DNA from: Escherichia coli
GTDB lineage: Bacteria > Pseudomonadota > Gammaproteobacteria > Enterobacterales > Enterobacteriaceae
Length of the DNA: 64,000 bases
Assembly (NCBI RefSeq): GCF_016026235.1
Contig: NZ_CP065613.1
Strand: one strand, 5' to 3'
A program made the position numbers and the translations under genes. Each line of letters begins with the position of its first letter. Position 1 is the first letter of the stretch. Of the stretch, positions 4,992 to 56,004 are shown piece by piece. The notes beneath the pieces were generated by a model, which saw only the letters and a list, made by a program, of their open reading frames with translations, searched no databases and was not told the DNA's origin.

Positions 4992-5780
4992 TCAGGCAGC
5001 TTTCGCGTTCTCTTCGACGCGGTTAATGCTGCGGTAGAGATGGTCAAAACGATCGTTATCAAACAATTGGCTGCTGCCGTCGTAGAAGACGTGCCCCTGA
5101 CGCAGGGCGACGATGCGCTCGCAGTAGCGCAGGGCGTAATCCACCTGATGCAGCGTGACGACCACGGTGATGCCGTCGTTCTGGTTGATGTCGCGCAGGG
5201 TGTCCATCACGATGCGCGCCGATTCTGGGTCCAGCGAGGCGATCGGTTCGTCGGCGAGAATCACCTTCGCCTGCTGCATCAGCGCGCGGGCAATCGCTAC
5301 ACGCTGCTGCTGGCCGCCGGAGAGGGTGGAAACGCGCTGATGGGCAAAATGCACCATGCCAACGCGGGTTAGCGCCTGTAATGCGCGCTGTTTCTGCTCG
5401 CGGGTGAAGTAGCTAAAACAGGTGCGCCAGAACGGCGTGCTGCCGAGCGCCCCAATCAGCACGTTCTCCAGTACGCTCAGGCGATTCACCAGGTTGAATT
5501 GTTGGAAGATGTAGCCGGTGTTGGCGCGGCTTTTGCGGATATCGCGGGCCAGGCGGCCTTCGCGCTGGACAGTGCGGCCCAGTAGCTCGATATGGCTACC
5601 GGCGGATTTATCGCCGGTAATCAAACCGCTTAAATGACGTAAAAGGGTGGATTTGCCGGAACCGGACGGCCCAAGCAGAGCCACCATTTCACCATGATGG
5701 ATATTCAGATCAACCGCGTGCAGCGCCTGATGCTGATTGAAGGTTTTGCTCAGTTGTTCGACGCGGATAATCGTTTGCAT
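4992..5780 (-). CDS. phnC: phosphonate ABC transporter ATP-binding protein
   Basis: 262 aa; Walker [10 protein letters not shown] and ABC signature LSGGQQQR. Confidence 0.93.
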
Positions 5781-5821
5781 GATGCAGCCTCCCTAAAAAA
5801 GTGGCTCCATCGTGGCGGATT

Positions 5822-5858
5822 ATTGTGACGGTTTGGTTAATGAAAAGTGACTAACAGA
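5822..5858 (-). promoter_or_regulatory. candidate Pho box (PhoB site) upstream of phnC
   Basis: Minus-strand reading CTGTTAGTCAC...CCGTCACAAT resembles direct-repeat Pho box ~40-80 bp upstream of phnC start. Confidence 0.5.
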
Positions 5859-5912
5859 TGAAGAGTTAACGGGAATTCGATGACAGTGCGGGAGGGCGGG
5901 CCTCCCGGCGGA

Positions 5913-6356
5913 TTATTGCGTTGGTTGTTGTTTGACGACATTAATCATCCACGGTACGCCAAATTTATCGGTGACTTTGCCAAAGCCATGCGCCCAGAAA
6001 GTTTCCTGCCAGGCCATTTCGATTTTTCCGTTAGCTGCAAGGTTATCAAACCAGCGTTTTCCTTCTTCGACCTGTTGCGAATCGAGCACCAGCGTAAAGC
6101 CGGAGTAGCTGGCTTTTCCTGACGGCATGGCATCGCTCATCATGATGTCGCTTCCGGCAATGCGCACGTTGGCATGAGCGATTGCGGTATCGGGAAATTG
6201 CATTCCGGAAGGGCAGTTCTCGGCGCTGTCCTGCGCTGATTTTGGCATTTCGCCGAAGCTGATTTTATAGAGCAGTTCAGCGCCCAACGTACGTTGATAA
6301 TAAGCAATTGCGTCGGCACAGTTACCGGCAAAAGAGAGGTAGGGACTTAACGGCAT
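5913..6356 (-). CDS. yjdN: PhnB/YjdN-like protein (glyoxalase-fold)
   Basis: 147 aa ORF; position between phnC and yjdM. Confidence 0.8.
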   Translation of the reverse strand: MPLSPYLSFAGNCADAIAYYQRTLGAELLYKISFGEMPKSAQDSAENCPSGMQFPDTAIAHANVRIAGSDIMMSDAMPSGKASYSGFTLVLDSQQVEEGKRWFDNLAANGKIEMAWQETFWAHGFGKVTDKFGVPWMINVVKQQPTQ

Positions 6357-6418
6357 GATGGTGACCTCAGTTAAGAGAAGCCAGTTAAGTGTAGTTCGAA
6401 ATTTGTACAGATGAGAGG

Positions 6419-6599
<181 letters not shown>

Positions 6600-6613
6600 C
6601 GATCACAATACAA

Positions 6614-6949
6614 TCAGTTCTTTTTCACGAACTCAGATTTCAGTTTCATCGGACCAAAACCGTCGATTTTGCAATCGATGTTATGGTCGCCTTCAACCAG
6701 GCGGATGTTTTTCACTTTGGTGCCAATTTTCAGCATCGAAGAGCTACCTTTCACCTTCAGATCTTTAATGATGGTAACGCTGTCGCCGTCAGCCAGCAGA
6801 TTGCCGTTAGCATCTTTAACGATCAGCTCATCGCTTTCCTGTGCAGGTTCTGCGTCGTTCCATTCGTAGGCACATTCCGGGCAGATGTACATGCCGTTAT
6901 CTTCGTAGGTGTATTCGGAGTTGCATTTTGGGCAGTGTGGTAATGACAT
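6614..6949 (-). CDS. yjdM: PhnA/YjdM zinc-ribbon protein
   Basis: Start [30 protein letters not shown] (two CxxC pairs); 111 aa. Confidence 0.88.
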
Positions 6950-7350
6950 GTGGATTTCCTCAAAAGTCAGCAGGGCAAAAGCGCCAAAAAACGGCAGATT
7001 GCCGAAAAAGGCCGCAATTATACACAAAATCCCTGAGTTTGTCGGGGGTACTGCTGATTTTAGACGACGATCGTTTTCATTTGAAAGGAAACGCAAAAAG
7101 AAAATAATCTTTTTGCCTCCATTTATTATTTAAGATAAGGTTAATGCTCTACTTGTTCTTTTTTTTATTCACATGATATTTTTATCTTTCTGACGTTTTA
7201 AACGTATCGGAAGATGTTATTTATTCTAATAAAAAACAACACTCTAAATATAAAATTATTTCTTGCAGTAATTATAAAAGCCGAAAACAGAACTCAAAAA
7301 CAATCTGGCTAAATAAAAGTAATAAAATTTGCTTTAAGGAAGAATTTTCT

Positions 7351-9579
7351 ATGTACACACAGACCCTGTATGAGTTAAGTCAGGAGGCTGAACGCCTGTT
7401 ACAGCTTTCTCGCCAACAGTTGCAGTTACTGGAAAAAATGCCTCTCTCTGTACCCAGAGACGATGCGCCACAACGGGCTTTACCCTGGAGTCAGCCTAAT
7501 ATCGCCGAACGTCACGCGATGCTGAATAATGAGTTGCGTAAAATTTCCCGACTGGAAATGGTGCTGGCGATTGTCGGTACCATGAAAGCAGGGAAATCAA
7601 CCACCATTAATGCCATTGTTGGTACGGAGGTACTGCCTAATCGCAATCGCCCAATGACTGCGCTGCCGACGCTTATTCGCCATACACCCGGGCAAAAAGA
7701 ACCGGTACTGCATTTTTCACATGTCGCGCCAATCGATTGTTTAATTCAAAAATTACAACAGCGCCTGCGTGATTGCGATATTAAGCATCTGACCGATGTG
7801 CTGGAAATAGATAAAGATATGCGTGCGCTTATGCAGCGGATCGAAAATGGCGTCGCTTTCGAAAAATATTATCTGGGTGCCCAGCCTATTTTTCATTGTC
7901 TGAAAAGTTTGAATGATTTAGTGCGACTGGCGAAGGCGCTGGACGTCGATTTTCCTTTTTCTGCTTACGCCGCCATTGAGCATATTCCCGTGATTGAAGT
8001 GGAGTTTGTCCATCTGGCGGGGCTGGAGAGTTATCCCGGTCAGTTGACGTTACTGGATACCCCCGGGCCAAATGAAGCCGGGCAACCGCATCTGCAAAAA
8101 ATGCTTAACCAGCAGCTGGCTCGCGCCTCGGCGGTACTGGCGGTGCTGGATTATACGCAACTGAAATCGATCTCCGATGAAGAGGTCCGTGAGGCGATTT
8201 TGGCGGTGGGGCAATCGGTGCCGCTGTATGTGCTGGTCAATAAGTTCGATCAACAGGATCGTAACAGTGACGACGCCGACCAGGTGCGGGCACTGATTTC
8301 CGGGACGCTGATGAAAGGCTGTATTACGCCACAGCAGATATTTCCGGTGTCGTCGATGTGGGGCTACCTGGCAAATCGGGCGCGCCATGAGTTAGCCAAC
8401 AACGGTAAGTTACCACCGCCAGAGCAACAACGCTGGGTGGAAGATTTTGCCCATGCCGCGCTCGGCAGGCGCTGGCGTCATGCCGATCTGGCGGACCTCG
8501 AACATATTCGTCATGCTGCCGATCAGTTGTGGGAAGATTCGCTGTTCGCCCAGCCAATTCAGATGTTGCTTCATGCCGCTTACGCTAACGCCTCGTTGTA
8601 TGCTCTGCGATCTGCCGCGCATAAACTGTTGAATTACGCGCAGCAGGCGCGGGAATACCTGGATTTTCGTGCGCACGGGTTAAACGTCGCTTGTGAACAA
8701 TTGCGGCAAAATATCCACCAGATCGAAGAAAGTTTGCAGCTATTGCAACTCAATCAGGCGCAGGTGAGCGGCGAGATTAAACATGAAATCGAGCTGGCCC
8801 TGACCTCCGCCAACCACTTTCTGCGTCAACAGCAAGATGCGCTGAAGGTGCAGTTAGCCGCCTTGTTTCAGGATGATTCGGAGCCGTTAAGCGAGATGCG
8901 TACCCACTGTGAGACACTGTTACAGACGGCGCAGAACACCATCAGTCGCGACTTTACGCTGCGTTTTGCCGAGCTGGAATCCACCCTTTGCCGAGTGTTA
9001 ACCGATGTTATTCGCCCCATTGAGCAACAAGTCAAAATGGAATTGAGCGAGTCAGGGTTTCGTCCTGGGTTTCATTTTCCTGTTTTTCACGGAGTAGTTC
9101 CCCACGTCAACACTCGCCAGCTGTTCAGTGAAGTCATTTCGCGCCAGGAGGCAACGGACGAGCAGAGCACGCGTTTAGGCGTTGTGCGTGAGACTTTTTC
9201 GCGCTGGTTGAATCAGCCCGACTGGGGATGGGGAAATGAGAAATCCCCGACAGAAACGGTTGATTACAGTGTGTTGCAACGAGCATTAAGCGCAGAAGTC
9301 GATCTTTATTGCCAACAAATGGCTAAAGTTCTGGCAGAGCAGGTCGATGAATCTGTTACGGCAGGCATGAATACTTTTTTCGCTGAGTTCGCTTCATGTT
9401 TGACGGAATTACAGACGCGTTTACGCGAAAGCCTGGCTCTGCGTCAACAAAATGAATCGGTGGTCAGGCTGATGCAGCAGCAATTGCAGCAGACTGTGAT
9501 GACTCACGGCTGGATTTACACCGACGCCCAGCTGTTACGCGATGATATTCAAACACTTTTCACGGCAGAACGATATTGA
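7351..9579 (+). CDS. crfC: dynamin-like GTPase (CrfC/YjdA)
   Basis: 742 aa ORF; P-loop GTMKAGKSTTINAIVG; long coiled-coil C-terminal half. Confidence 0.88.
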   Translation: MYTQTLYELSQEAERLLQLSRQQLQLLEKMPLSVPRDDAPQRALPWSQPNIAERHAMLNNELRKISRLEMVLAIVGTMKAGKSTTINAIVGTEVLPNRNRPMTALPTLIRHTPGQKEPVLHFSHVAPIDCLIQKLQQRLRDCDIKHLTDVLEIDKDMRALMQRIENGVAFEKYYLGAQPIFHCLKSLNDLVRLAKALDVDFPFSAYAAIEHIPVIEVEFVHLAGLESYPGQLTLLDTPGPNEAGQPHLQKMLNQQLARASAVLAVLDYTQLKSISDEEVREAILAVGQSVPLYVLVNKFDQQDRNSDDADQVRALISGTLMKGCITPQQIFPVSSMWGYLANRARHELANNGKLPPPEQQRWVEDFAHAALGRRWRHADLADLEHIRHAADQLWEDSLFAQPIQMLLHAAYANASLYALRSAAHKLLNYAQQAREYLDFRAHGLNVACEQLRQNIHQIEESLQLLQLNQAQVSGEIKHEIELALTSANHFLRQQQDALKVQLAALFQDDSEPLSEMRTHCETLLQTAQNTISRDFTLRFAELESTLCRVLTDVIRPIEQQVKMELSESGFRPGFHFPVFHGVVPHVNTRQLFSEVISRQEATDEQSTRLGVVRETFSRWLNQPDWGWGNEKSPTETVDYSVLQRALSAEVDLYCQQMAKVLAEQVDESVTAGMNTFFAEFASCLTELQTRLRESLALRQQNESVVRLMQQQLQQTVMTHGWIYTDAQLLRDDIQTLFTAERY

Positions 9580-10442
9580 CCAAGACGTTACTGGACGGCC
9601 CCGGTCGCGTGCTGGAGTCGGTTTATCCCCGCTTTTTAGTGGATCTGGCGCAGGGCGATGATGCCCGCCTTCCACAAGCCCATCAGCAGCAGTTTCGTGA
9701 ACGACTGATGCAGGAACTTCTTTCGCGTGTGCAGCTTCAGACATGGACGAACGGCGGCATGTTAAATGCGCCGCTTAGCCTGCGACTGACAATGGTGGAA
9801 AAACTGGCGTCGATGCTGGATCCCGGTCATCTGGCGCTGACGCAGATCGCGCAGCATCTGGCGCTGCTGCAAAAAATGGATCACCGCCAGCACTCTGCTT
9901 TCCCGGAGCTCCCCCAGCAAATTGCCGCCTTGTATGAGTGGTTTTCAGCCCGTTGTCGCTGGAAGGAAAAGGCGTTAACGCAACGAGGCCTACTGGTGCA
10001 GGCAGGTGATCAGAGCGAGCAAATTTTTACCCGCTGGCGTGCTGGGGCGTATAACGCCTGGTCGTTGCCTGGGCGCTGTTTTATCGTTCTCGAAGAGTTG
10101 CGCTGGGGTGCATTTGGCGATGCCTGCCGTCTGGGAAGCCCGCAAGCGGTGGTGTTGTTGCTGGGTGATTTGCGCGAGAAAGCGACACAACATCTGGCAG
10201 AGAGTATCAATGCGGCACCGACCACGCGTCACTATTACCATCAGTGGTTTGCCTCTTCGGGAGGGGAGCATGCTGATTTTTTAAGTTGGCTGGGAAAGTG
10301 GTCCATGGCAGATAAACAGCCCGTTTGCTGGTCAGTGACCCAACGCTGGCAAACAGTCGCGCTGGGGATGCCACGACTCTGTTCAGCGCAGCGTTTGGTG
10401 GGGGCAATGGTCGAGGAAATCTTCTCTGTAAATTTGGCGTAA
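9576..10442 (+). CDS. yjcZ: YjcZ, partner protein of CrfC
   Basis: 288 aa ORF overlapping crfC stop by 4 nt (translationally coupled). Confidence 0.8.
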   Translation: MTKTLLDGPGRVLESVYPRFLVDLAQGDDARLPQAHQQQFRERLMQELLSRVQLQTWTNGGMLNAPLSLRLTMVEKLASMLDPGHLALTQIAQHLALLQKMDHRQHSAFPELPQQIAALYEWFSARCRWKEKALTQRGLLVQAGDQSEQIFTRWRAGAYNAWSLPGRCFIVLEELRWGAFGDACRLGSPQAVVLLLGDLREKATQHLAESINAAPTTRHYYHQWFASSGGEHADFLSWLGKWSMADKQPVCWSVTQRWQTVALGMPRLCSAQRLVGAMVEEIFSVNLA

Positions 10443-17371: not shown

Positions 17372-18133
17372 TCAGGCGACAGTGCGTTCTCTGTGCTGAC
17401 TAACATAATGCAGCGGTGTCATACCGTAGAAGTCTTTAAAGACAGAAATAAAGTACGACGTACTGTTGTAGCCGCAGGACTGTGATACCTGAGAGATATT
17501 TTTACCGTCCATCATTAATTCATTTACGGCATAACGCATGCGGCAGGTGGTGATTATTTGGCTATAACTGGTGTTTTCGCTTTTCAGCTTTTTCTTTAAC
17601 AGACTAGGGCTAAGGCATAAACAACTGGCTACCATACTAAGATTCCAGTCTTTGTGAATATCGCTTTCAATAATTTGATAAACGCTGTCACTTACACAAT
17701 TACGTAACATATACATCATTAATGAAAGGAATTTTTTACTGTCGAGAAAACGGGATAGCACCGTGAATAATAATGCGCGTGTTCGTTCCTTTTCTGACTC
17801 AGTTTCTGCGGGCATCATGCTATGTTGCGCGGCAACGCGAAAGACGTCTGGCGTCAGGCATGGCAGGGTGAGTATGGGCGTAGCGCTACGTTGCCATACT
17901 GGTATTTGCGAGAGATCTTTATTCAGAAACCGGAGGTAATCTTTGATGATGTCGTGACTAATATGAGCAACCAAAGTGTTGTTAAGAGAGGAGACGTCGA
18001 TAATATTATTTTCACAATTTAATAACGCCATATGGTTAGCTTTAAGGCTAATAGGTTCTTTCCCATTCACCCTTATCCAGACATCTTTTTCAGTCAATAA
18101 AACAATACAAGGTTGGTCGCTGCAAATCCTCAT
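17372..18133 (-). CDS. adiY: AraC-family regulator AdiY
   Basis: 253 aa; C-terminal AraC HTH; between adiA and adiC. Confidence 0.9.
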   Translation of the reverse strand: MRICSDQPCIVLLTEKDVWIRVNGKEPISLKANHMALLNCENNIIDVSSLNNTLVAHISHDIIKDYLRFLNKDLSQIPVWQRSATPILTLPCLTPDVFRVAAQHSMMPAETESEKERTRALLFTVLSRFLDSKKFLSLMMYMLRNCVSDSVYQIIESDIHKDWNLSMVASCLCLSPSLLKKKLKSENTSYSQIITTCRMRYAVNELMMDGKNISQVSQSCGYNSTSYFISVFKDFYGMTPLHYVSQHRERTVA

Positions 18134-18312
18134 ACATGTACTCCTGAGTGCGAATAAAAGACCAGTTCTCGCTAAAGCAAAGCGATACCGGGAAATGGTT
18201 ATATAATTGTATGATGAATATAAACATGCATAAAAATAACGAGTTTTACTAATATTACAAATTTTTATAGTAATTTCTCATGTACATATTTTTTTACAGG
18301 ATAAATAACAGG

Positions 18313-18342
18313 CAAAAAAAAGCGCGGGGTGGGGCCGCGCAA
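18313..18342 (-). terminator. intrinsic terminator downstream of adiA
   Basis: aaaaaaaagcgcggggtggggccgcgc: GC hairpin followed by U-run on the minus-strand transcript. Confidence 0.6.
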
Positions 18343-28949: not shown

Positions 28950-29519
28950 GTGTGAACCCTCGCGATAATCCTATTTAAATTTTTGCTGAATAGATCACAG
29001 TCACGTTCTGTTTTGTATGAACTGTTTTCAGAGCCTGACTAAATATCCGTTTGGTCGTTACCGGCTTTAGCAAATGCCTCACAGTGAATATTGGCTGATT
29101 AAAGCAGCGGCAAATTTATGCACTGTGATAAGCGGCTTTTTCAGAGAGAAAAACTCTCTGGCGATGGGTTTATAGTTTGTACTGCGCAGATGTTAATGTT
29201 TTGTTTGCTGTTATCTTATTGATATTTATCGGTCTATTTTTTGTTCTCAGGGCAGATATCATTAGGTTTAAAGATTAATCTGATCTACCCATTTGTGGGT
29301 AAAAATACACATAATGCGGGTGACATAATAGTTAATTAACTTTTGTTAGCGTTTTGAAATTAAAAACACCGTTCACCTGAAGAGATATTAATTTTTAGCG
29401 ATGATGGAGGGATAATTATATTTGATCTGGCACAAGTTTTACTGATGAAGGATGTAACTTGTGCCAGGGGTATTTTGCATTACGGTAATAATTATTACTT
29501 ACAGATAACCAGCGATCCG

Positions 29520-30239
29520 TTATTGGCAATATTGTTTCAGCAGTGAGTAGTGTTCTGCCTGAATACGGTAACGGTAAACCGGACGCCCCGTGACGCCATA
29601 ATGGATACTGGTGAACAAGATGTGGCAGTTGACCAGCCAGATGAGGTATTTTCGGCAGGAAACACGCGAGATGTTAACCTCGTTAGCCAGCTCGTCGGTT
29701 GAAAACTCATAGTCCTGATGCGCGTCAATCCACTGGCACAGCGTGCGTAACGTCTGCGGCGTTAAGCCTTTTGGCAAGCGACGAGGATCCTGTTCGTTGG
29801 AGCTGCTGCCGTGGATTAGCTGATCAAGCTCGGCCTGGTCATAATACTGATGTTTTTCCAGCGCCATTTTCTTTTGCCGCCAGCCGGTGAGCGCCTCTTC
29901 AAAGCGGGAAGCCTGGAAGGGTTTGATCAGGTAATCCACGACACCGTAATGCAGCGAATCTTTAATGGTTGCCGCATCGGCTGCGGAGGAGATGACAATC
30001 ACATCACTTTTGCAACGCGCGTTATGCAGGACAGGCAGTAAATCGAGCCCGTTCTCTTTTTGCATATAGATATCGAGCAATATCAGGTCGATAGGCGTAT
30101 CGCTATTGAAGATAATCTCTTTGGCTTTCTCCAGCGTCGAGGCTGTTCCACAGCATTGAAAGCCTGGGATTTGTGCTACGTATCGGCGATTCAGCTCCGC
30201 GACCATTGCGTCGTCATCGATAATTAATACATTGATCAT
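29520..30239 (-). CDS. dcuR: response regulator DcuR
   Basis: 239 aa; MINVLIIDDD receiver domain. Confidence 0.92.
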   Translation of the reverse strand: MINVLIIDDDAMVAELNRRYVAQIPGFQCCGTASTLEKAKEIIFNSDTPIDLILLDIYMQKENGLDLLPVLHNARCKSDVIVISSAADAATIKDSLHYGVVDYLIKPFQASRFEEALTGWRQKKMALEKHQYYDQAELDQLIHGSSSNEQDPRRLPKGLTPQTLRTLCQWIDAHQDYEFSTDELANEVNISRVSCRKYLIWLVNCHILFTSIHYGVTGRPVYRYRIQAEHYSLLKQYCQ

Positions 30240-33404: not shown

Positions 33405-34922
33405 TTATTTCTGTGGGCGCATCGCCGGGAAGAGAATAACGTCGCGAATAGTATGACTGTTTGTAAACAGCATAATCATTCGGTCGATACCAATACCCAG
33501 ACCAGCGGTTGGCGGCAGACCATATTCCAGCGCAGTCACGTAATCTTCGTCATAGAACATGGCTTCGTCGTCACCTGCAGCTTTAGCGTTAACCTGTTCC
33601 TGGAAACGTTCAGCCTGATCTTCTGCGTCGTTTAATTCGCTAAAACCATTACCGATTTCACGACCACCGATGAAGAATTCAAAACGGTCGGTGATTTCTG
33701 GGTTAACATCATTACGGCGTGCCAGCGGTGACACTTCTGCCGGATATTCCGTAATAAAGGTTGGCTGAATCAGATGTGCTTCTGCCACTTCATCAAAGAT
33801 CTCCGTGACAATACGTCCCAGCCCCCAGCTTTTCTCTACCGTAATACCGATAGATTCAGCTAATTCTTTAGCAGCATCAAAATTATCCAGGTCGGCCATA
33901 TCGGTTTCTGGACGATATTTTTTGATTGCTTCGCGCATGGTGAGTTTTTCAAACGGTTTGCCGAAATCAAACACATGCTCGCCATAAGTGACTTTAGTGG
34001 TACCCAGAACCTCTTGTGCCAGGGTGCGGAACAGGGACTCTGTCAGTTCAATCAAATCGTGGTAATCCGCATACGCCATGTAGAGTTCCATCATTGTGAA
34101 CTCAGGATTATGGCGAACAGAAATACCTTCATTACGGAAGTTACGGTTGATTTCGAATACCCGTTCAAAACCGCCTACAACCAGACGTTTCAGATACAGC
34201 TCTGGCGCGATACGCAGATACATATCTAAATCCAGAGCATTATGATGGGTAATAAACGGGCGAGCAGATGCCCCACCTGGAATTACCTGCATCATCGGGG
34301 TTTCTACTTCCATAAAGCCGCGCGCGACCATGAACTGACGGATAGCGGCCAGAATTTTTGAACGGACAACGAACGTTTGACGGGATTTATCGTTAGCGAT
34401 GAGGTCCAGATAACGTTGACGATAACGGACTTCCTGATCCTGCAGACCATGGAATTTATCTGGTAAAGGACGTAGTGCTTTAGTCAGCAGGCGCAGCTCA
34501 GTACAGTGAATGGAAAGCTCACCCGTTTGCGTCTTAAACAGCGTACCGCGGGCACCGATAATGTCACCCAGATCCCATTTTTTAAACTGATCGTTATAAA
34601 CACCTTCTGGCAGGCTATCTCTTGCAACGTACAGTTGAATACGGCCACCGACATCCTGCAACGTTACAAAGGAGGCTTTCCCCATGATACGACGGGTCAT
34701 CATTCGGCCAGCAACCGAGACTTCAATGTTTAAGGATTCCAGTTCCTGGTTATTCTTCGCATCAAACTCTTCGTGCAACTGGTCAGAGGTATGGTCGCGG
34801 CGAAAATCATTGGGAAACGCCACACCTTGCTGACGTAGTGCCGCCAGTTTTTCGCGGCGATTTCTCAGTTCATCGTTAAAATCAATAGCCTCATTGGCTC
34901 CCCGTGTTTCTTGTTCAGACAT
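33405..34922 (-). CDS. lysU: lysyl-tRNA synthetase, inducible isoform
   Basis: Start [26 protein letters not shown]; 505 aa class II aaRS. Confidence 0.92.
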
Positions 34923-35158
34923 TTTGGTTCCTCTAAATCCAGCTTTCAATTTAGCGTAGATAAAGAGACAGATCGGTACACTGTATTATCTGCCTCGACT
35001 ATTAATAACTCAGTTTATCTTATCGAAACTAACGCTTACCTCAAGTTGATATCACTAATAAATAACCATCAAAATGGTTTAAATGACTTATTAATCTCGA
35101 TTTACCAGTGTGATAAACTGAAAGTTAATTTATTCATAACTAATTGTTTTTACGACAG

Positions 35159-36616
35159 TTAATCGTTGCTCTCCTGTACCATATTCGTCGGCGTGCTAAA
35201 CAGGAAACGGGTAGCAAAGGCCAATACGACGATGATCGCGACACAAGCCAACGTCCACTCTCCCATCTGAGAAAAGAATCGCTGGTAAGCTGCAATTGCC
35301 ATACCGCTAATTTGCGACTCTGTCGTCTGCTGTGCCACTACGCCTGCCAGCCAGTTGGCGACCGCGCCTGTTGCCAGCATATAAATCCCGGTTAATACGC
35401 CAGACATTTTCAGACGCGTGATTTGCGCAATCGCCACCGGGTCAATAAAGAGTTCGGCAAAGCCCATTAGCGCCAACCCGGATATCATCACGCCCATTGA
35501 CGCTTGACCGTCAGCCGCTGCATGTCGGGCATCAAATGCCAACAACATAAAGCCACAAGCCATCAGCAGTAAGCCAAAGGCAAACTTCAACCAGACGCGC
35601 AATGTTGAGTTGCCGCGGCTTTCTGGCGACGCCAGCCAGGCCAGTACAACCCCAGCGAGCATCACCGCAATTGCATTCACCGACTGGAATAGTGCTGTAG
35701 GTACTTCAATATTGAATGCCTGACGATTCACAAAGCGATCGATAAACAAGCTGATGGTACTGCCGCCCTGTTGTGCCAGTACCCAGAACAATGTCCCGAC
35801 AAACATCAACAATACAATTTGCCAAAGAGCACGGCGGTGTTCGGGGAATTTGATCATCATGCGGGCAATGATTTGTGCGGCAATGAGGCAAACGATCGCC
35901 AGCAAATATCCGGACCAGTCGTTCTCCAGCAGCAGGGTAAAAAATACTGGGGCTAAACAGAGCATCACCACTAACCAGCTCCATACCGGTAAGGCAAATT
36001 TGACGCTAGTGAGCGCTTTTTTATCCATACTACGCGTGGACTGGAAATGACGATGCCCGCTTAAGAAAATCAACAAACCGATAAACATGCCGCCACCCGC
36101 AAGGGCAAAGCCAACATGCCATCCATACCACTGAGCAGCCAGGCCGCAGGCGATTGGGGCGGCGATAGAACCGATATTGCCCGCAGCATACAGCAGCGAA
36201 AAACCGCCATCACGTCGATGATCGTTCTCGTCGTAGAGCTCGCCAAGCAAACAGCTGATGTTTGATTTGAATAAACCGTAGCCACAAATAATGATTGCCA
36301 GCGCCAGATACAGGCTAAAGGTTGAATTTGTATCAATACCCAGCACCACATGGCCAAGGGTCATTAACAGCGCGCCGGCAATCACTGCAGTGCGGTTGCC
36401 GAGCAGGCGGTCGGCAAGCCAGCCGCCGAGAATAGGGGTAACGTAAACCAGAGAAGCATATGCGCTGAACAGGCTGATGGCATGGTTATCATCAAAACCA
36501 AGCTGATGGGTGAGATAGAGAATGAGTAAGGCACGCATGCCGTAAAAACTGAAGTACTCCCAGATTTGGATCGCCACGATATAGTATATCGCGCGCGGCT
36601 GTGAGGGTGTTTTCAT
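35159..36616 (-). CDS. dtpC: dipeptide/tripeptide:H+ permease (POT family)
   Basis: 485 aa. Confidence 0.9.
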
Positions 36617-40236: not shown

Positions 40237-40601
40237 GCTCTTCTCCTAATTTCATTTTTGAATTTGGAGTCCGGGTCATGATGTATAACTATTTCCTGAC
40301 CAGACCAAACTGGCGCTAAGATTACTCACGAAAAAAGGATTAATCCTAAAGATTAGGTGAAATAACACAAAAGTTTCTGTAAGTGAGAACTTGAGGTTTT
40401 TTATTAACACATCAGGATCGCAAGTTGATATCATGAAAAGATAAACATTCAATGTTTACAATAGATTGCGTGACGTCTTCTGGTTAAATTTATGTAATAA
40501 AAATTATGCGGCAAATAAATTGCCGCAACATATTATACCAACAGGAACATACAAAAACTCAACAACAAATATTCCCTAGCATGAATCAACCCAGGAGTTA
40601 C
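40237..40601 (-). promoter_or_regulatory. Pcad promoter/operator region (cadBA control region)
   Basis: Intergenic cadC-cadB; AT-rich with perfect palindrome tgcggcaaataaattgccgca at 40507..40527. Confidence 0.5.
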
Positions 40602-42803: not shown

Positions 42804-44018
42804 GGGAACTCCAGCTGTTACAACTTTTATTTACCATATTAATGTCAATATCGCGTGGATTGAGCAAAATACGCGATTTGCTCATCGGAAGACGTGTATC
42901 AAGACTTGAAAACGCTACCAGTGCTACACAGATACCTAAGGACAACAGGAAAAAAAACCATACCCAAAAGGTAGTGAATCGTTTGCTTTTAACTGGGGAT
43001 TGTTCAGGTGGCGTTGCGGTGTTTTGAATGTTAAGGCTGTGGGAGGGAGAATCTGTGGCAGGAACCGCCTCTGGTATAGGGGGAGGCGAAGATAGCATTA
43101 TTTCCTCTCCCTCTTCTTCGCTGTACCAGATAACCGGCACCATTAATTTATAGCCGCGCTTTGGTACAGTAGCGATATAGACAGGACTATCTTCATCATT
43201 ATCTTTTAATGAATTACGTAGTTCTGAGATACTCTGCGTCACAACGTGATTGGTGACAATACTTCTCTTCCAGACATTATCGATAAGTTCATCCCTGCTA
43301 AGTACTTCGCCACTGTGTTGAGCAAAGAAAACCAGAAGATCGATTAATCTCGGCTCAAGGGTAAGTTGACGCCCATTGCGGCTAATTTGGTTTATGGACG
43401 GAGTAACAAGCCATTCGCCAACGCGAACTACAGGTTGTTGCATAATAGAAACTCATTCGAAAAGGGAATGATGCAATGATAATTGCCACAACCTATTTTT
43501 ACCATCTATAGATGGGTTTATTTACATATTATTGGTGAATGCAAGACGTTATTTTTACCAGCCATAAACTTCTTGATTACATGGTATTACGAAAGGATTT
43601 TACTGAGAACCAGAAGTAATATTCCTTACCATCAAAATTCATCATCTTTGCCAAAGAAAAATGTTCAGAAAATAATCCATGGAAAATTGTCCGGAGCGCT
43701 TACTATTTTAATGGATTGTTAGTCTTTGCATGAGCAAGGGGACTGATACATTTCTCTTTGTTCTCATTCAGAAAATCTCATCAGTCGCCGTTCAGACCGG
43801 TGTTGTGCTTTATGGATGCGTTACGCTCCTGATGACGTCATTTGACGTTCAACAGCATCACGGGGTCGCACGACATTTCACGTCAGTTAGTGCTATAGCT
43901 CAGGAACAAATTTTCCCGAATTGGGATATGCCCGCAAATTGCTGGTGATGTGGGGAGAATCTGGTTGAGTTCGGTAGAATTGATTTGGCGGCAGAACGCT
44001 TAAATCGTGGCGTCCTGA

Positions 44019-54873: not shown

Positions 54874-55743
54874 TTATTTCGCCTGTGGTGCAGTTTTGCT
54901 GGTGGATTGAACACGTAAGTGATGCAGCGCGCGTAAGCATTGATCCTGGGTTAGCGGTTGGGCGTTATTTGCCGCTACGGTGCGAACATAGACCTGACAT
55001 GGCACACCCGCGAGTTTTTTCAGTCGTGGGCTGAAATCAAGCATTCGGCGAGTGATCGCCTCTACTTCTTTACCCGGCGTTGCTTCACGCGTTTTCACCA
55101 CTGCGCCGCTAAATTGTTCTTTGCCACTTTCATCTTTAAAGCGGTAAAGCACCGCCAGATAATGGTCGAACAAGTTATGTTTCCATTCCGGTTGGGAATA
55201 GGTGTCATATTCCAGATTGCCATTTTCCTGGCAGTCAACGTCATATAACGGCAGGAAATCTAACAGTGAGGTAATACGTAATGCCAGTTCACGCATTTCC
55301 GCATTATTAATTGCATGAATGATTGCTCGCGCCAGCATTTCAATCTGCAACTCATTGACGACTAACTCACATTTGCTACCGTCATGTAGCGTTAATACGA
55401 AGGTAAGATTTTCGCCTTGATTATCGGTAAGTTCCAGCGTGTTAACCCGACGATTAATATCGGCATTTTTAAGCTCATCAACCAGAATTTCTGGGATATT
55501 TTCTGCCATTTTCTTAATGACTTTATCGCGAGCTTGCTCATACTGAAGGCGTGTAGCAGCATCCAGTTTATGCTTTTGATGCAGACGACTTTCCAGCGCA
55601 ATCAGCAGGTCGCGCAGTTCCATGACAGACATAAAGAACAACGATTCTTTATTGCGAGGTTCTTTAATTTTCAGCGCCAGTGCAATGAAATTATTACTCT
55701 TGCGAATAACACCGGTATTAACACCCTTGATGCTTATGGCCAT
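54874..55743 (-). CDS. yjeJ: uncharacterised protein YjeJ
   Basis: 289 aa ORF in AT-rich context. Confidence 0.8.
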   Translation of the reverse strand: MAISIKGVNTGVIRKSNNFIALALKIKEPRNKESLFFMSVMELRDLLIALESRLHQKHKLDAATRLQYEQARDKVIKKMAENIPEILVDELKNADINRRVNTLELTDNQGENLTFVLTLHDGSKCELVVNELQIEMLARAIIHAINNAEMRELALRITSLLDFLPLYDVDCQENGNLEYDTYSQPEWKHNLFDHYLAVLYRFKDESGKEQFSGAVVKTREATPGKEVEAITRRMLDFSPRLKKLAGVPCQVYVRTVAANNAQPLTQDQCLRALHHLRVQSTSKTAPQAK

Positions 55744-56004
55744 GTAGGTTCTCCCTAACCATTTCTCAATTAAATAATTAATTTTAATTTATAAGCCAGA
55801 TAAATGGGCTTGGTAGTAATAGTTGTTAAAATAACATAAATAGCCGTACTCACTCTATATAAACAGAAAAGAAAGGTTAATTATTGGTGTTAGTTATATA
55901 AAGAGTAACAACAGCAATACATATGAATAATTAAAGGTTATGCAACGTGCAAAGATTAAATTTTCCAGTTTAATGACAGGTTGCTGTACTTGCGTTTGTT
56001 GCTC

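Follow-up and report, generated by a model that had tools for sequence, protein, structure and literature searches.

Composition, conservation and probable H-NS silencing of the AT-rich DNA upstream of the crfC-yjcZ operon of Escherichia coli

The crfC(rdcA)-yjcZ(rdcB) operon of Escherichia coli is preceded by a stretch of strongly AT-rich DNA, which a first-pass annotation had described as phased, curved, and silenced by H-NS. The locus raises the question of whether this DNA is a silenced promoter region and, if so, which property of its sequence H-NS would recognize. Our analysis of a 64-kb stretch of the E. coli chromosome (the window) leads us to conclude, with good confidence, that positions 7097 to 7350 are the upstream regulatory/promoter region of the operon and are silenced by H-NS.

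Locus and composition of the AT-rich block

The intergenic region between the divergent genes yjdM and crfC comprises 401 bp (6950 to 7350), and the AT-rich block forms its crfC-proximal two-thirds (Table 1). As had been annotated, the block lies directly 5′ of crfC, whose start codon is at 7351, and the gene identities also hold: Pfam assigns Dynamin_N to CrfC and the YjcZ family to the product of the gene after it, which is followed by proP. Bases 6900 to 7400 are present in 5413 of 5426 complete E. coli genomes, flanked by annotated yjdM and crfC.

Some observations concern the wider locus. The yjcZ (rdcB) allele of the window encodes 288 amino acids, with an in-frame deletion of four residues (TVPT) and a few substitutions relative to RdcB of MG1655. 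The yjdN-yjdM interval strongly matches Rfam RF02564 (naRNA4, a REP-derived element; 6520 to 6596, 104 bits, minus strand), and in strain S51 the same interval carries an IS1397 insertion (annotated coding sequence at 5255 to 6603 of the S51 locus, L001). In E. coli AVS0747 (L027), the match stops ∼12 bp beyond the start codon of yjdM, and the genes that follow are unrelated (electron-transfer flavoprotein genes and a cupin pseudogene); this rare deletion or rearrangement has removed the intergenic region and crfC from that position. Fragments of crfC with 98% identity to E. coli occur on two short public contigs, L016 and L018, which bear the labels “Leptolinea sp. MAG” and “Gleimia coleocanis,” and L016 also has an AT-rich upstream region identical to that of E. 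coli; both are most likely E. coli contamination of those assemblies.

Table 1. Positions of genes, sites, and segments at the yjdM-crfC-yjcZ locus (window coordinates)
Feature	Position	Strand	Remarks
yjdM (phnA) coding sequence, divergent from crfC	6614..6949	-	ORF and RefSeq annotation; Pfam YjdM and Zn_Ribbon_YjdM; ATG at 6949
yjdM-proximal third of the intergenic region	6950..7096		55% AT, outside the AT-rich block; probably yjdM promoter and yjdM 5′ UTR
Exact DnaA box TTATACACA	7018..7026	+	Overlaps putative yjdM -10; conserved in Escherichia and C. koseri
Perfect 9-bp inverted repeat GCAAAAAGA-N6-TCTTTTTGC	7093..7116		Start of the AT-rich block (GC-to-AT transition); overlaps -10 of the 7081-7108 sigma70-like match
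Distal AT-rich segment, likely H-NS platform	7097..7255		77.4% AT; fast evolving, composition kept
Exact DnaA box TTATTCACA	7165..7173	+	In the AT-rich block; polymorphic; MG1655 has TAATTCACA (8/9 bases)
Proximal conserved module	7256..7350	+	74.7% AT; probably core promoter, short 5′ UTR, and Shine-Dalgarno sequence of crfC
Conserved motif GTAATTATAAAAGCCGAAAA	7268..7287	+	Nearly invariant in Escherichia and Citrobacter; holds GCCGAAAA and weak plus-strand -10-like hexamers
Conserved motif TGGCTAAATAAAAGTAATAAAATTTGCTTTAAGGAAG	7306..7342	+	Shine-Dalgarno sequence at its end; conserved throughout the alignment (8 taxa, with Yokenella)
crfC (yjdA/rdcA), dynamin-like GTPase	7351..9579	+	Annotation; Pfam Dynamin_N, E = 2.8e-18
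Sigma28 (FliA) promoter inside crfC, driving yjcZ	9324..9351	+	Exact match to the ChIP-seq motif TAAAGTTCTGGCAGAGCAGGTCGATGAA of Fitzgerald 2014
yjcZ (rdcB)	9576..10442	+	4-nt overlap with the crfC stop; Pfam YjcZ, E = 1.5e-137

The block is 76.4% AT over 254 bp, compared to 49.5% for the whole window, which bears out the annotated ∼250 bp at ∼75% AT, and the string that had been quoted from it, tttttttattcacatgatatttttatctttc, is located at 7160 to 7190. Over this length, AT content is nowhere higher in the 64 kb: 0.013% of all 254-bp segments reach 76.4%, and all of these lie inside the block. AT content climbs from ∼55% to >70% near 7070 and drops back at the crfC start codon. TpA steps occur at a density of 0.11 per bp, compared to 0.047 for the window (2.3-fold enrichment), so that the block has the extended (at least 100 bp) AT-rich, TpA-rich DNA of an H-NS-silenced promoter region. 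Inside crfC-yjcZ, the maximum AT content of any 254-bp segment is 57.9%, and 7097 to 7350 alone in the transcription unit is strongly AT rich. Small open reading frames in the AT-rich DNA are of 20 to 32 codons only and have no supporting evidence.

Similar tracts had been annotated upstream of yjeJ and dcuB. Their positions are correct, but they are not equally extreme: the yjeJ/epmB intergenic region (55745 to 55980) is 72.5% AT, and the dcuB/dcuR intergenic region (28950 to 29520) averages 63.9% AT and peaks at 69.7%. Further AT peaks of the window (at least 68% over 254 bp) are found at 18041 to 18318, 34898 to 35160, 40254 to 40570, and 43423 to 43688. Forrest 2022 lists cadB, adiY, and adiC, as well as dcuB and yjeJ, as “H-NS bound.” By approximate colinearity with strain S51, the peak at 34898 to 35160 corresponds to DNA upstream of the lysine-tRNA ligase gene beside dtpC, and that at 40254 to 40570 corresponds to the cadC-cadB intergenic region.

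Classical curved-DNA sites of H-NS are AT rich, contain phased A-tracts, and lie upstream of repressed promoters. The crfC block resembles them in its AT richness, its many A/T runs, and its place upstream of a repressed promoter but differs in having neither helical phasing nor curvature beyond composition. It contains 13 homopolymer A or T runs of at least 4 bases, and their spacing is irregular; 10- to 11-bp periodicity is absent, as the AA/TT Fourier power of the block at 10 to 11.25 bp is equalled by 54% of dinucleotide shuffles. The description of the tracts as phased is therefore not upheld. The same is true of “curved,” for which curvature prediction had been proposed as the check: under two wedge models (Trifonov and AA-wedge angles, sanity checked on synthetic phased A6 tracts), the block is no more extreme than its own dinucleotide shuffles in mean curvature, in maximum curvature, or in end-to-end ratio. 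Mean predicted curvature is 10.0 degrees per turn in the block compared to the window average of 6.8, an elevation due to composition alone.

Within the intergenic region, predicted curvature exceeds that of shuffles only in the yjdM-proximal segment, 6950 to 7096, whose mean curvature and end-to-end ratio are reached by 0 to 3% of shuffles and whose maximum curvature is reached by 3 to 7%. A promoter scan places a predicted yjdM promoter here on the minus strand (-35 CCGACA, 7045 to 7040; -10 TATAAT, 7022 to 7017). None of the 147 columns of the segment is variable among 9 E. coli strains, and about 6940 to 7070 is near-identical to the sequence of Citrobacter koseri. For noncoding DNA, 6950 to 7070 is unusually constrained (97% identity in other Escherichia species), and its A-tracts have a predicted curvature exceeding that of shuffles. 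A small hairpin and T-run (7004 to 6992, minus strand) would sit in the yjdM leader, the predicted fold of which is not significantly stable (z = −1.21).

H-NS binding and silencing

Published data support the annotation of the block as H-NS-silenced promoter DNA, through both H-NS binding and a rise in crfC mRNA in Δhns strains. According to Taniguchi 2019 (PMC6374313), crfC is repressed by H-NS, for whose binding at the crfC promoter region Oshima 2006 and Shimada 2011 are cited, and by RT-qPCR crfC mRNA was “markedly increased” in a Δhns strain. In Curran 2017, crfC-yjcZ is flagged as H-NS associated in the Kahramanoglou and Oshima data sets, and overproduction of SlyA increased crfC-yjcZ expression 2.6-fold. 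The yjdA-yjcZ transcription unit is marked as H-NS bound in S2 Table of Higashi 2016, and crfC, dcuB, and yjeJ all belong to the “H-NS bound” gene set in the source data of Forrest 2022.

H-NS occupancy and derepression in hns mutants had been proposed as checks, and both are on record. Occupancy was positive in Oshima 2006, Shimada 2011, and Kahramanoglou, as reported in the papers citing them, and in Higashi 2016 and Forrest 2022. Derepression was found both by RT-qPCR and by RNA-seq, and its size differs between studies: in the Δhns RNA-seq data of Forrest 2022, the change for crfC is small and borderline (logFC of 0.77, ∼1.7-fold; −log10 P of 1.31, P about 0.05) and the weakest of the three genes, with log2 changes of 1.53 for dcuB and 2.32 for yjeJ. 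The DNA upstream of dcuB (28964 to 29533) and yjeJ (about 55630 to 55980) resembles the crfC block in that AT peaks abut H-NS-bound genes; these peaks reach 70 to 71% AT, compared to 76% for the crfC block, yet in those data crfC shows the weakest response to loss of H-NS. Silencing of the crfC promoter region by H-NS is an already published, ordinary feature.

H-NS binds preferentially to AT-rich DNA in which TpA steps are frequent, and the high-affinity nucleation motif TCGATAAATT is a supporting, not an obligatory, feature of the regions that it silences. In the block, this motif has no match within 2 mismatches and, within 3 mismatches, has 3 matches compared to 7.6 expected from shuffles, i.e., it is not enriched. 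As TpA steps are enriched and the motif is neither found nor enriched, H-NS binding looks composition driven. Since no 254-bp segment of crfC-yjcZ approaches the AT content of the upstream block, the block would be the only plausible H-NS loading site, and we infer specific binding of H-NS to 7097 to 7350 within the locus, as well as its exact footprint, on this basis.

Most likely, H-NS would load on the block, the only AT-rich, TpA-rich DNA of the transcription unit, and then polymerize across the promoter, holding crfC transcription low. Removal of H-NS raises crfC mRNA, as does overproduction of the H-NS antagonist SlyA. Consistent with low activity of the upstream promoter, Fitzgerald 2014 found no FliA peak upstream of yjdA and placed a FliA-dependent promoter at the yjdA 3′ end. 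The H-NS-repressed, SlyA- or LeuO-antagonized promoters listed with crfC-yjcZ in Curran 2017 (hlyE, casA, leuO, and elf) are all AT rich upstream and H-NS associated, and crfC-yjcZ is like them in being induced by SlyA overproduction. It differs from them in that the crfC promoter was not among the SlyA EMSA targets of that study and in that the genes of the operon are of ordinary composition (48.6% AT). The relaxed SlyA site TTAN6TAA has one match in the block, which is the chance level. The crfC case is one of an AT-rich promoter before a gene of normal GC content, not a silenced AT-rich island.

DnaA and FliA as possible further inputs

The DnaA box consensus, TTATNCACA, has three exact matches in the 64 kb, and two of these fall in the 401-bp intergenic region. 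This concentration raises the possibility of a promoter governed mainly by DnaA, through which production of the clamp-binding protein CrfC would be linked to the replication initiator. Taniguchi 2019 (PMC6374313) points to DnaA boxes in the crfC promoter and reports a ∼2-fold rise of crfC mRNA at 42°C that was lost in dnaA46; the two boxes may fit this modest DnaA-dependent effect. However, the effect is small as reported and perhaps indirect, the box within the AT-rich block is imperfect in MG1655 and differs again in other E. coli strains, and the conserved box lies on the yjdM -10, away from crfC. We consider a mainly DnaA-controlled promoter unlikely; DnaA could be an additional input and is no alternative to silencing by H-NS.

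The consensus of sigma28 (FliA) class 3 promoters is TAAAGTTT-N11-GCCGATAA. Sites were scored with a position weight matrix (PWM) built from 49 published ChIP-seq motifs, the weakest bound site of which scores 7.9 bits. The best sigma28 score of the window, 17.7 bits, is that of the intragenic site in crfC (Table 1), with which an independent RpoF SELEX peak coincides. Upstream of crfC, the conserved -10-like element GCCGAAAA at 7280 to 7287 has 7 of 8 bases of GCCGATAA and a -10 half-score of +10.5 bits, as a class 3 promoter would. The block differs from such promoters in having no -35 element, as TCTTGCAG, at 7261 to 7268 where TAAAGTTT would be expected 11 nucleotides upstream of the -10, gives a half-score of −6.1 bits. 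The candidate upstream promoter was rejected because its total of 3.5 bits falls below every one of the ChIP-defined sites; 310 positions of the window score as well.

A functional FliA class 3 promoter in the block, with GCCGAAAA as its -10 and through which the flagellar cascade would switch on the operon from upstream, is nevertheless suggested by several observations. The -10-like element is identical to that of tsr and conserved in Escherichia and Citrobacter. In Zhao 2007, yjdA was down 12.3-fold in a ΔfliA strain and up 5.3-fold on FliA induction, and the sigmaF holoenzyme transcribed upstream fragments of “most of” ten tested genes in vitro; later papers, including Taniguchi 2019 (PMC6374313), follow Zhao 2007 in calling the operon FlhDC/FliA controlled. 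Against this stand the low score of the whole site and the location of the only FliA ChIP-seq/RpoF SELEX peak, which is inside yjdA, where the intragenic promoter can account for the FliA-dependent yjdA signal. In the words of Fitzgerald 2014, the promoter upstream “has been incorrectly predicted.” We regard such a promoter as quite improbable. With the only peak inside crfC and the upstream site failing the PWM, flagellar input acts mainly on yjcZ, from within crfC, and the locus looks flagellar regulated despite its silenced upstream promoter because yjcZ has its own intragenic FliA promoter.

The conserved motif pair beside the crfC start codon is a residual curiosity. The pair GTAATTATAAAAGCCGAAAA and CYGGCTAAATAAAAGTAATAAAATTTGCGTTAAGGAA could form an undescribed control module, e.g., a promoter that depends on an activator or a sigma28 promoter lacking its -35, masked by H-NS in vivo, although we judge this to be distinctly unlikely. 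If true, crfC would need relief from H-NS and a second signal, and the in vitro transcription by sigmaF in Zhao 2007 would be reconciled with the missing upstream FliA ChIP peak.

Conservation, leader length, and biological meaning

Orthologues of crfC with usable upstream DNA were found, in a species-representative scan, in two other Escherichia species, C. koseri, three Citrobacter amalonaticus strains, and Yokenella. In these three genera, the 250 bp upstream of crfC are 68 to 75% AT, compared to 45 to 51% for the loci overall and 53 to 61% for their neighboring noncoding DNA. The block itself falls into two parts. Identity to Citrobacter and Yokenella is 53 to 60% in the distal part (7097 to 7255) and 71 to 76% in the first 900 nucleotides of the crfC coding sequence; the proximal part (7256 to 7350) is 74 to 80% identical to Citrobacter, 59% identical to Yokenella, and 93 to 94% identical to the other Escherichia species. 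Nucleotide diversity (pi) among the 9 E. coli strains is 0.035 in the distal part, 0.014 in the proximal part, 0.0095 in the crfC coding sequence, and 0.000 in the yjdM-proximal segment.

These comparisons indicate that the distal ∼160 bp turn over at about the neutral rate with composition retained and that the proximal ∼95 bp, about as conserved as the coding sequence, probably behave like a core promoter and short leader. Within the model of silencing by H-NS, the distal part would be a composition-based H-NS platform, in which AT content is kept and the sequence is free to drift, and the proximal part would most likely carry the core promoter, a short 5′ UTR, and the ribosome-binding site. 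The proximal motifs contain -10-like elements (AATTAT/TATAAA at 7270 to 7278 and, in the TGGCTAAATAAAAGTAATAAAATTTGCTTTAAGGAAG motif, TAAAAT at 7323 to 7328), and the TGGCTAAATAAAAGTAATAAAATTTGCTTTAAGGAAG motif also contains the Shine-Dalgarno sequence AAGGAAG (7336 to 7342).

Turnover of the distal part at the neutral rate is equally expected of an unconstrained spacer. Its AT richness could thus be a by-product of mutation bias between divergent promoters, with H-NS binding there of little regulatory consequence, and the neutral-like diversity, the near-random identity across genera, the lack of a specific H-NS motif, curvature, or phasing, and the mere 1.7-fold change in one Δhns RNA-seq data set are all in keeping with this. 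Such a spacer would not be expected to retain its AT content in three genera despite turnover, at a level well above that of neighboring noncoding DNA, and both the marked derepression of crfC in the Δhns strain by RT-qPCR (Taniguchi 2019) and the induction of the operon by SlyA overproduction (Curran 2017) argue for a regulatory consequence of H-NS. We therefore give the by-product explanation little credence and retain a composition-based platform for H-NS as the preferred reading of the distal part.

The core promoter cannot be picked out by motif score. A sigma70 PWM scan gives many middling candidates on both strands and no clear winner, as the DNA is AT rich, and promoter-like (-10-like) hexamers are ∼4-fold overrepresented on both strands because of composition alone. 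The best plus-strand sigma70-like match of the intergenic region is TTGAAA (7081 to 7086), a 16-bp spacer, and AATAAT (7103 to 7108), with 10 of 12 bases. A perfect TATAAT on the minus strand (7276 to 7271) lies within the motif GTAATTATAAAAGCCG, which is conserved across genera, and might possibly serve a divergent or antisense start near 7264, directed towards yjdM through the AT-rich tract. The supplements of Kim 2012 have no transcription start entry for yjdA or yjdM. The inverted repeat at 7093 to 7116 is flagged as terminator-like on the minus strand; it is invariant among the compared E. coli strains save for one spacer change (7098) in a single strain. Other Escherichia species keep it with 1 or 2 uncompensated changes, and Citrobacter lacks it.

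A start near 7115 from the 7081-7108 match, which is conserved within Escherichia, would give a ∼235-nucleotide leader and place most of the block in the transcript, where it could act as RNA through structure, sRNA pairing, or Rho-dependent attenuation; this is very improbable, as that match is absent in Citrobacter and its like are abundant through composition, the distal 160 bp are unconserved across genera and vary about neutrally within E. coli, and a structured regulatory 5′ leader or riboswitch was rejected, with no Rfam family at threshold in the block (a chance-level match only, E = 0.88), a minimum free energy of 7115 to 7370 no better than that of shuffles (z = −0.21), and 0 compensatory pairs when the aligned sequences of the conserved proximal part were folded. 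Because there is no sign of a functional RNA and the best distal sigma70 match is confined to Escherichia, a short crfC leader is favored over the long one that had been annotated, with the AT-rich tract mostly upstream of the predicted start.

The analysis refines the published picture of the crfC promoter in three respects. Silencing would depend on base composition and not on phasing, curvature, or a specific H-NS motif; the block appears to consist of a fast-drifting AT-rich platform and a conserved 95-bp core; and the upstream FliA promoter still cited in some papers fails a motif test. CrfC (RdcA) has been tied to sister-chromosome handling and to activation of DgcE, the main diguanylate cyclase, which switches on biofilm formation, and because of these roles the amount of CrfC matters. 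Correct localization of CrfC, as published, requires that H-NS hold the CrfC level low.
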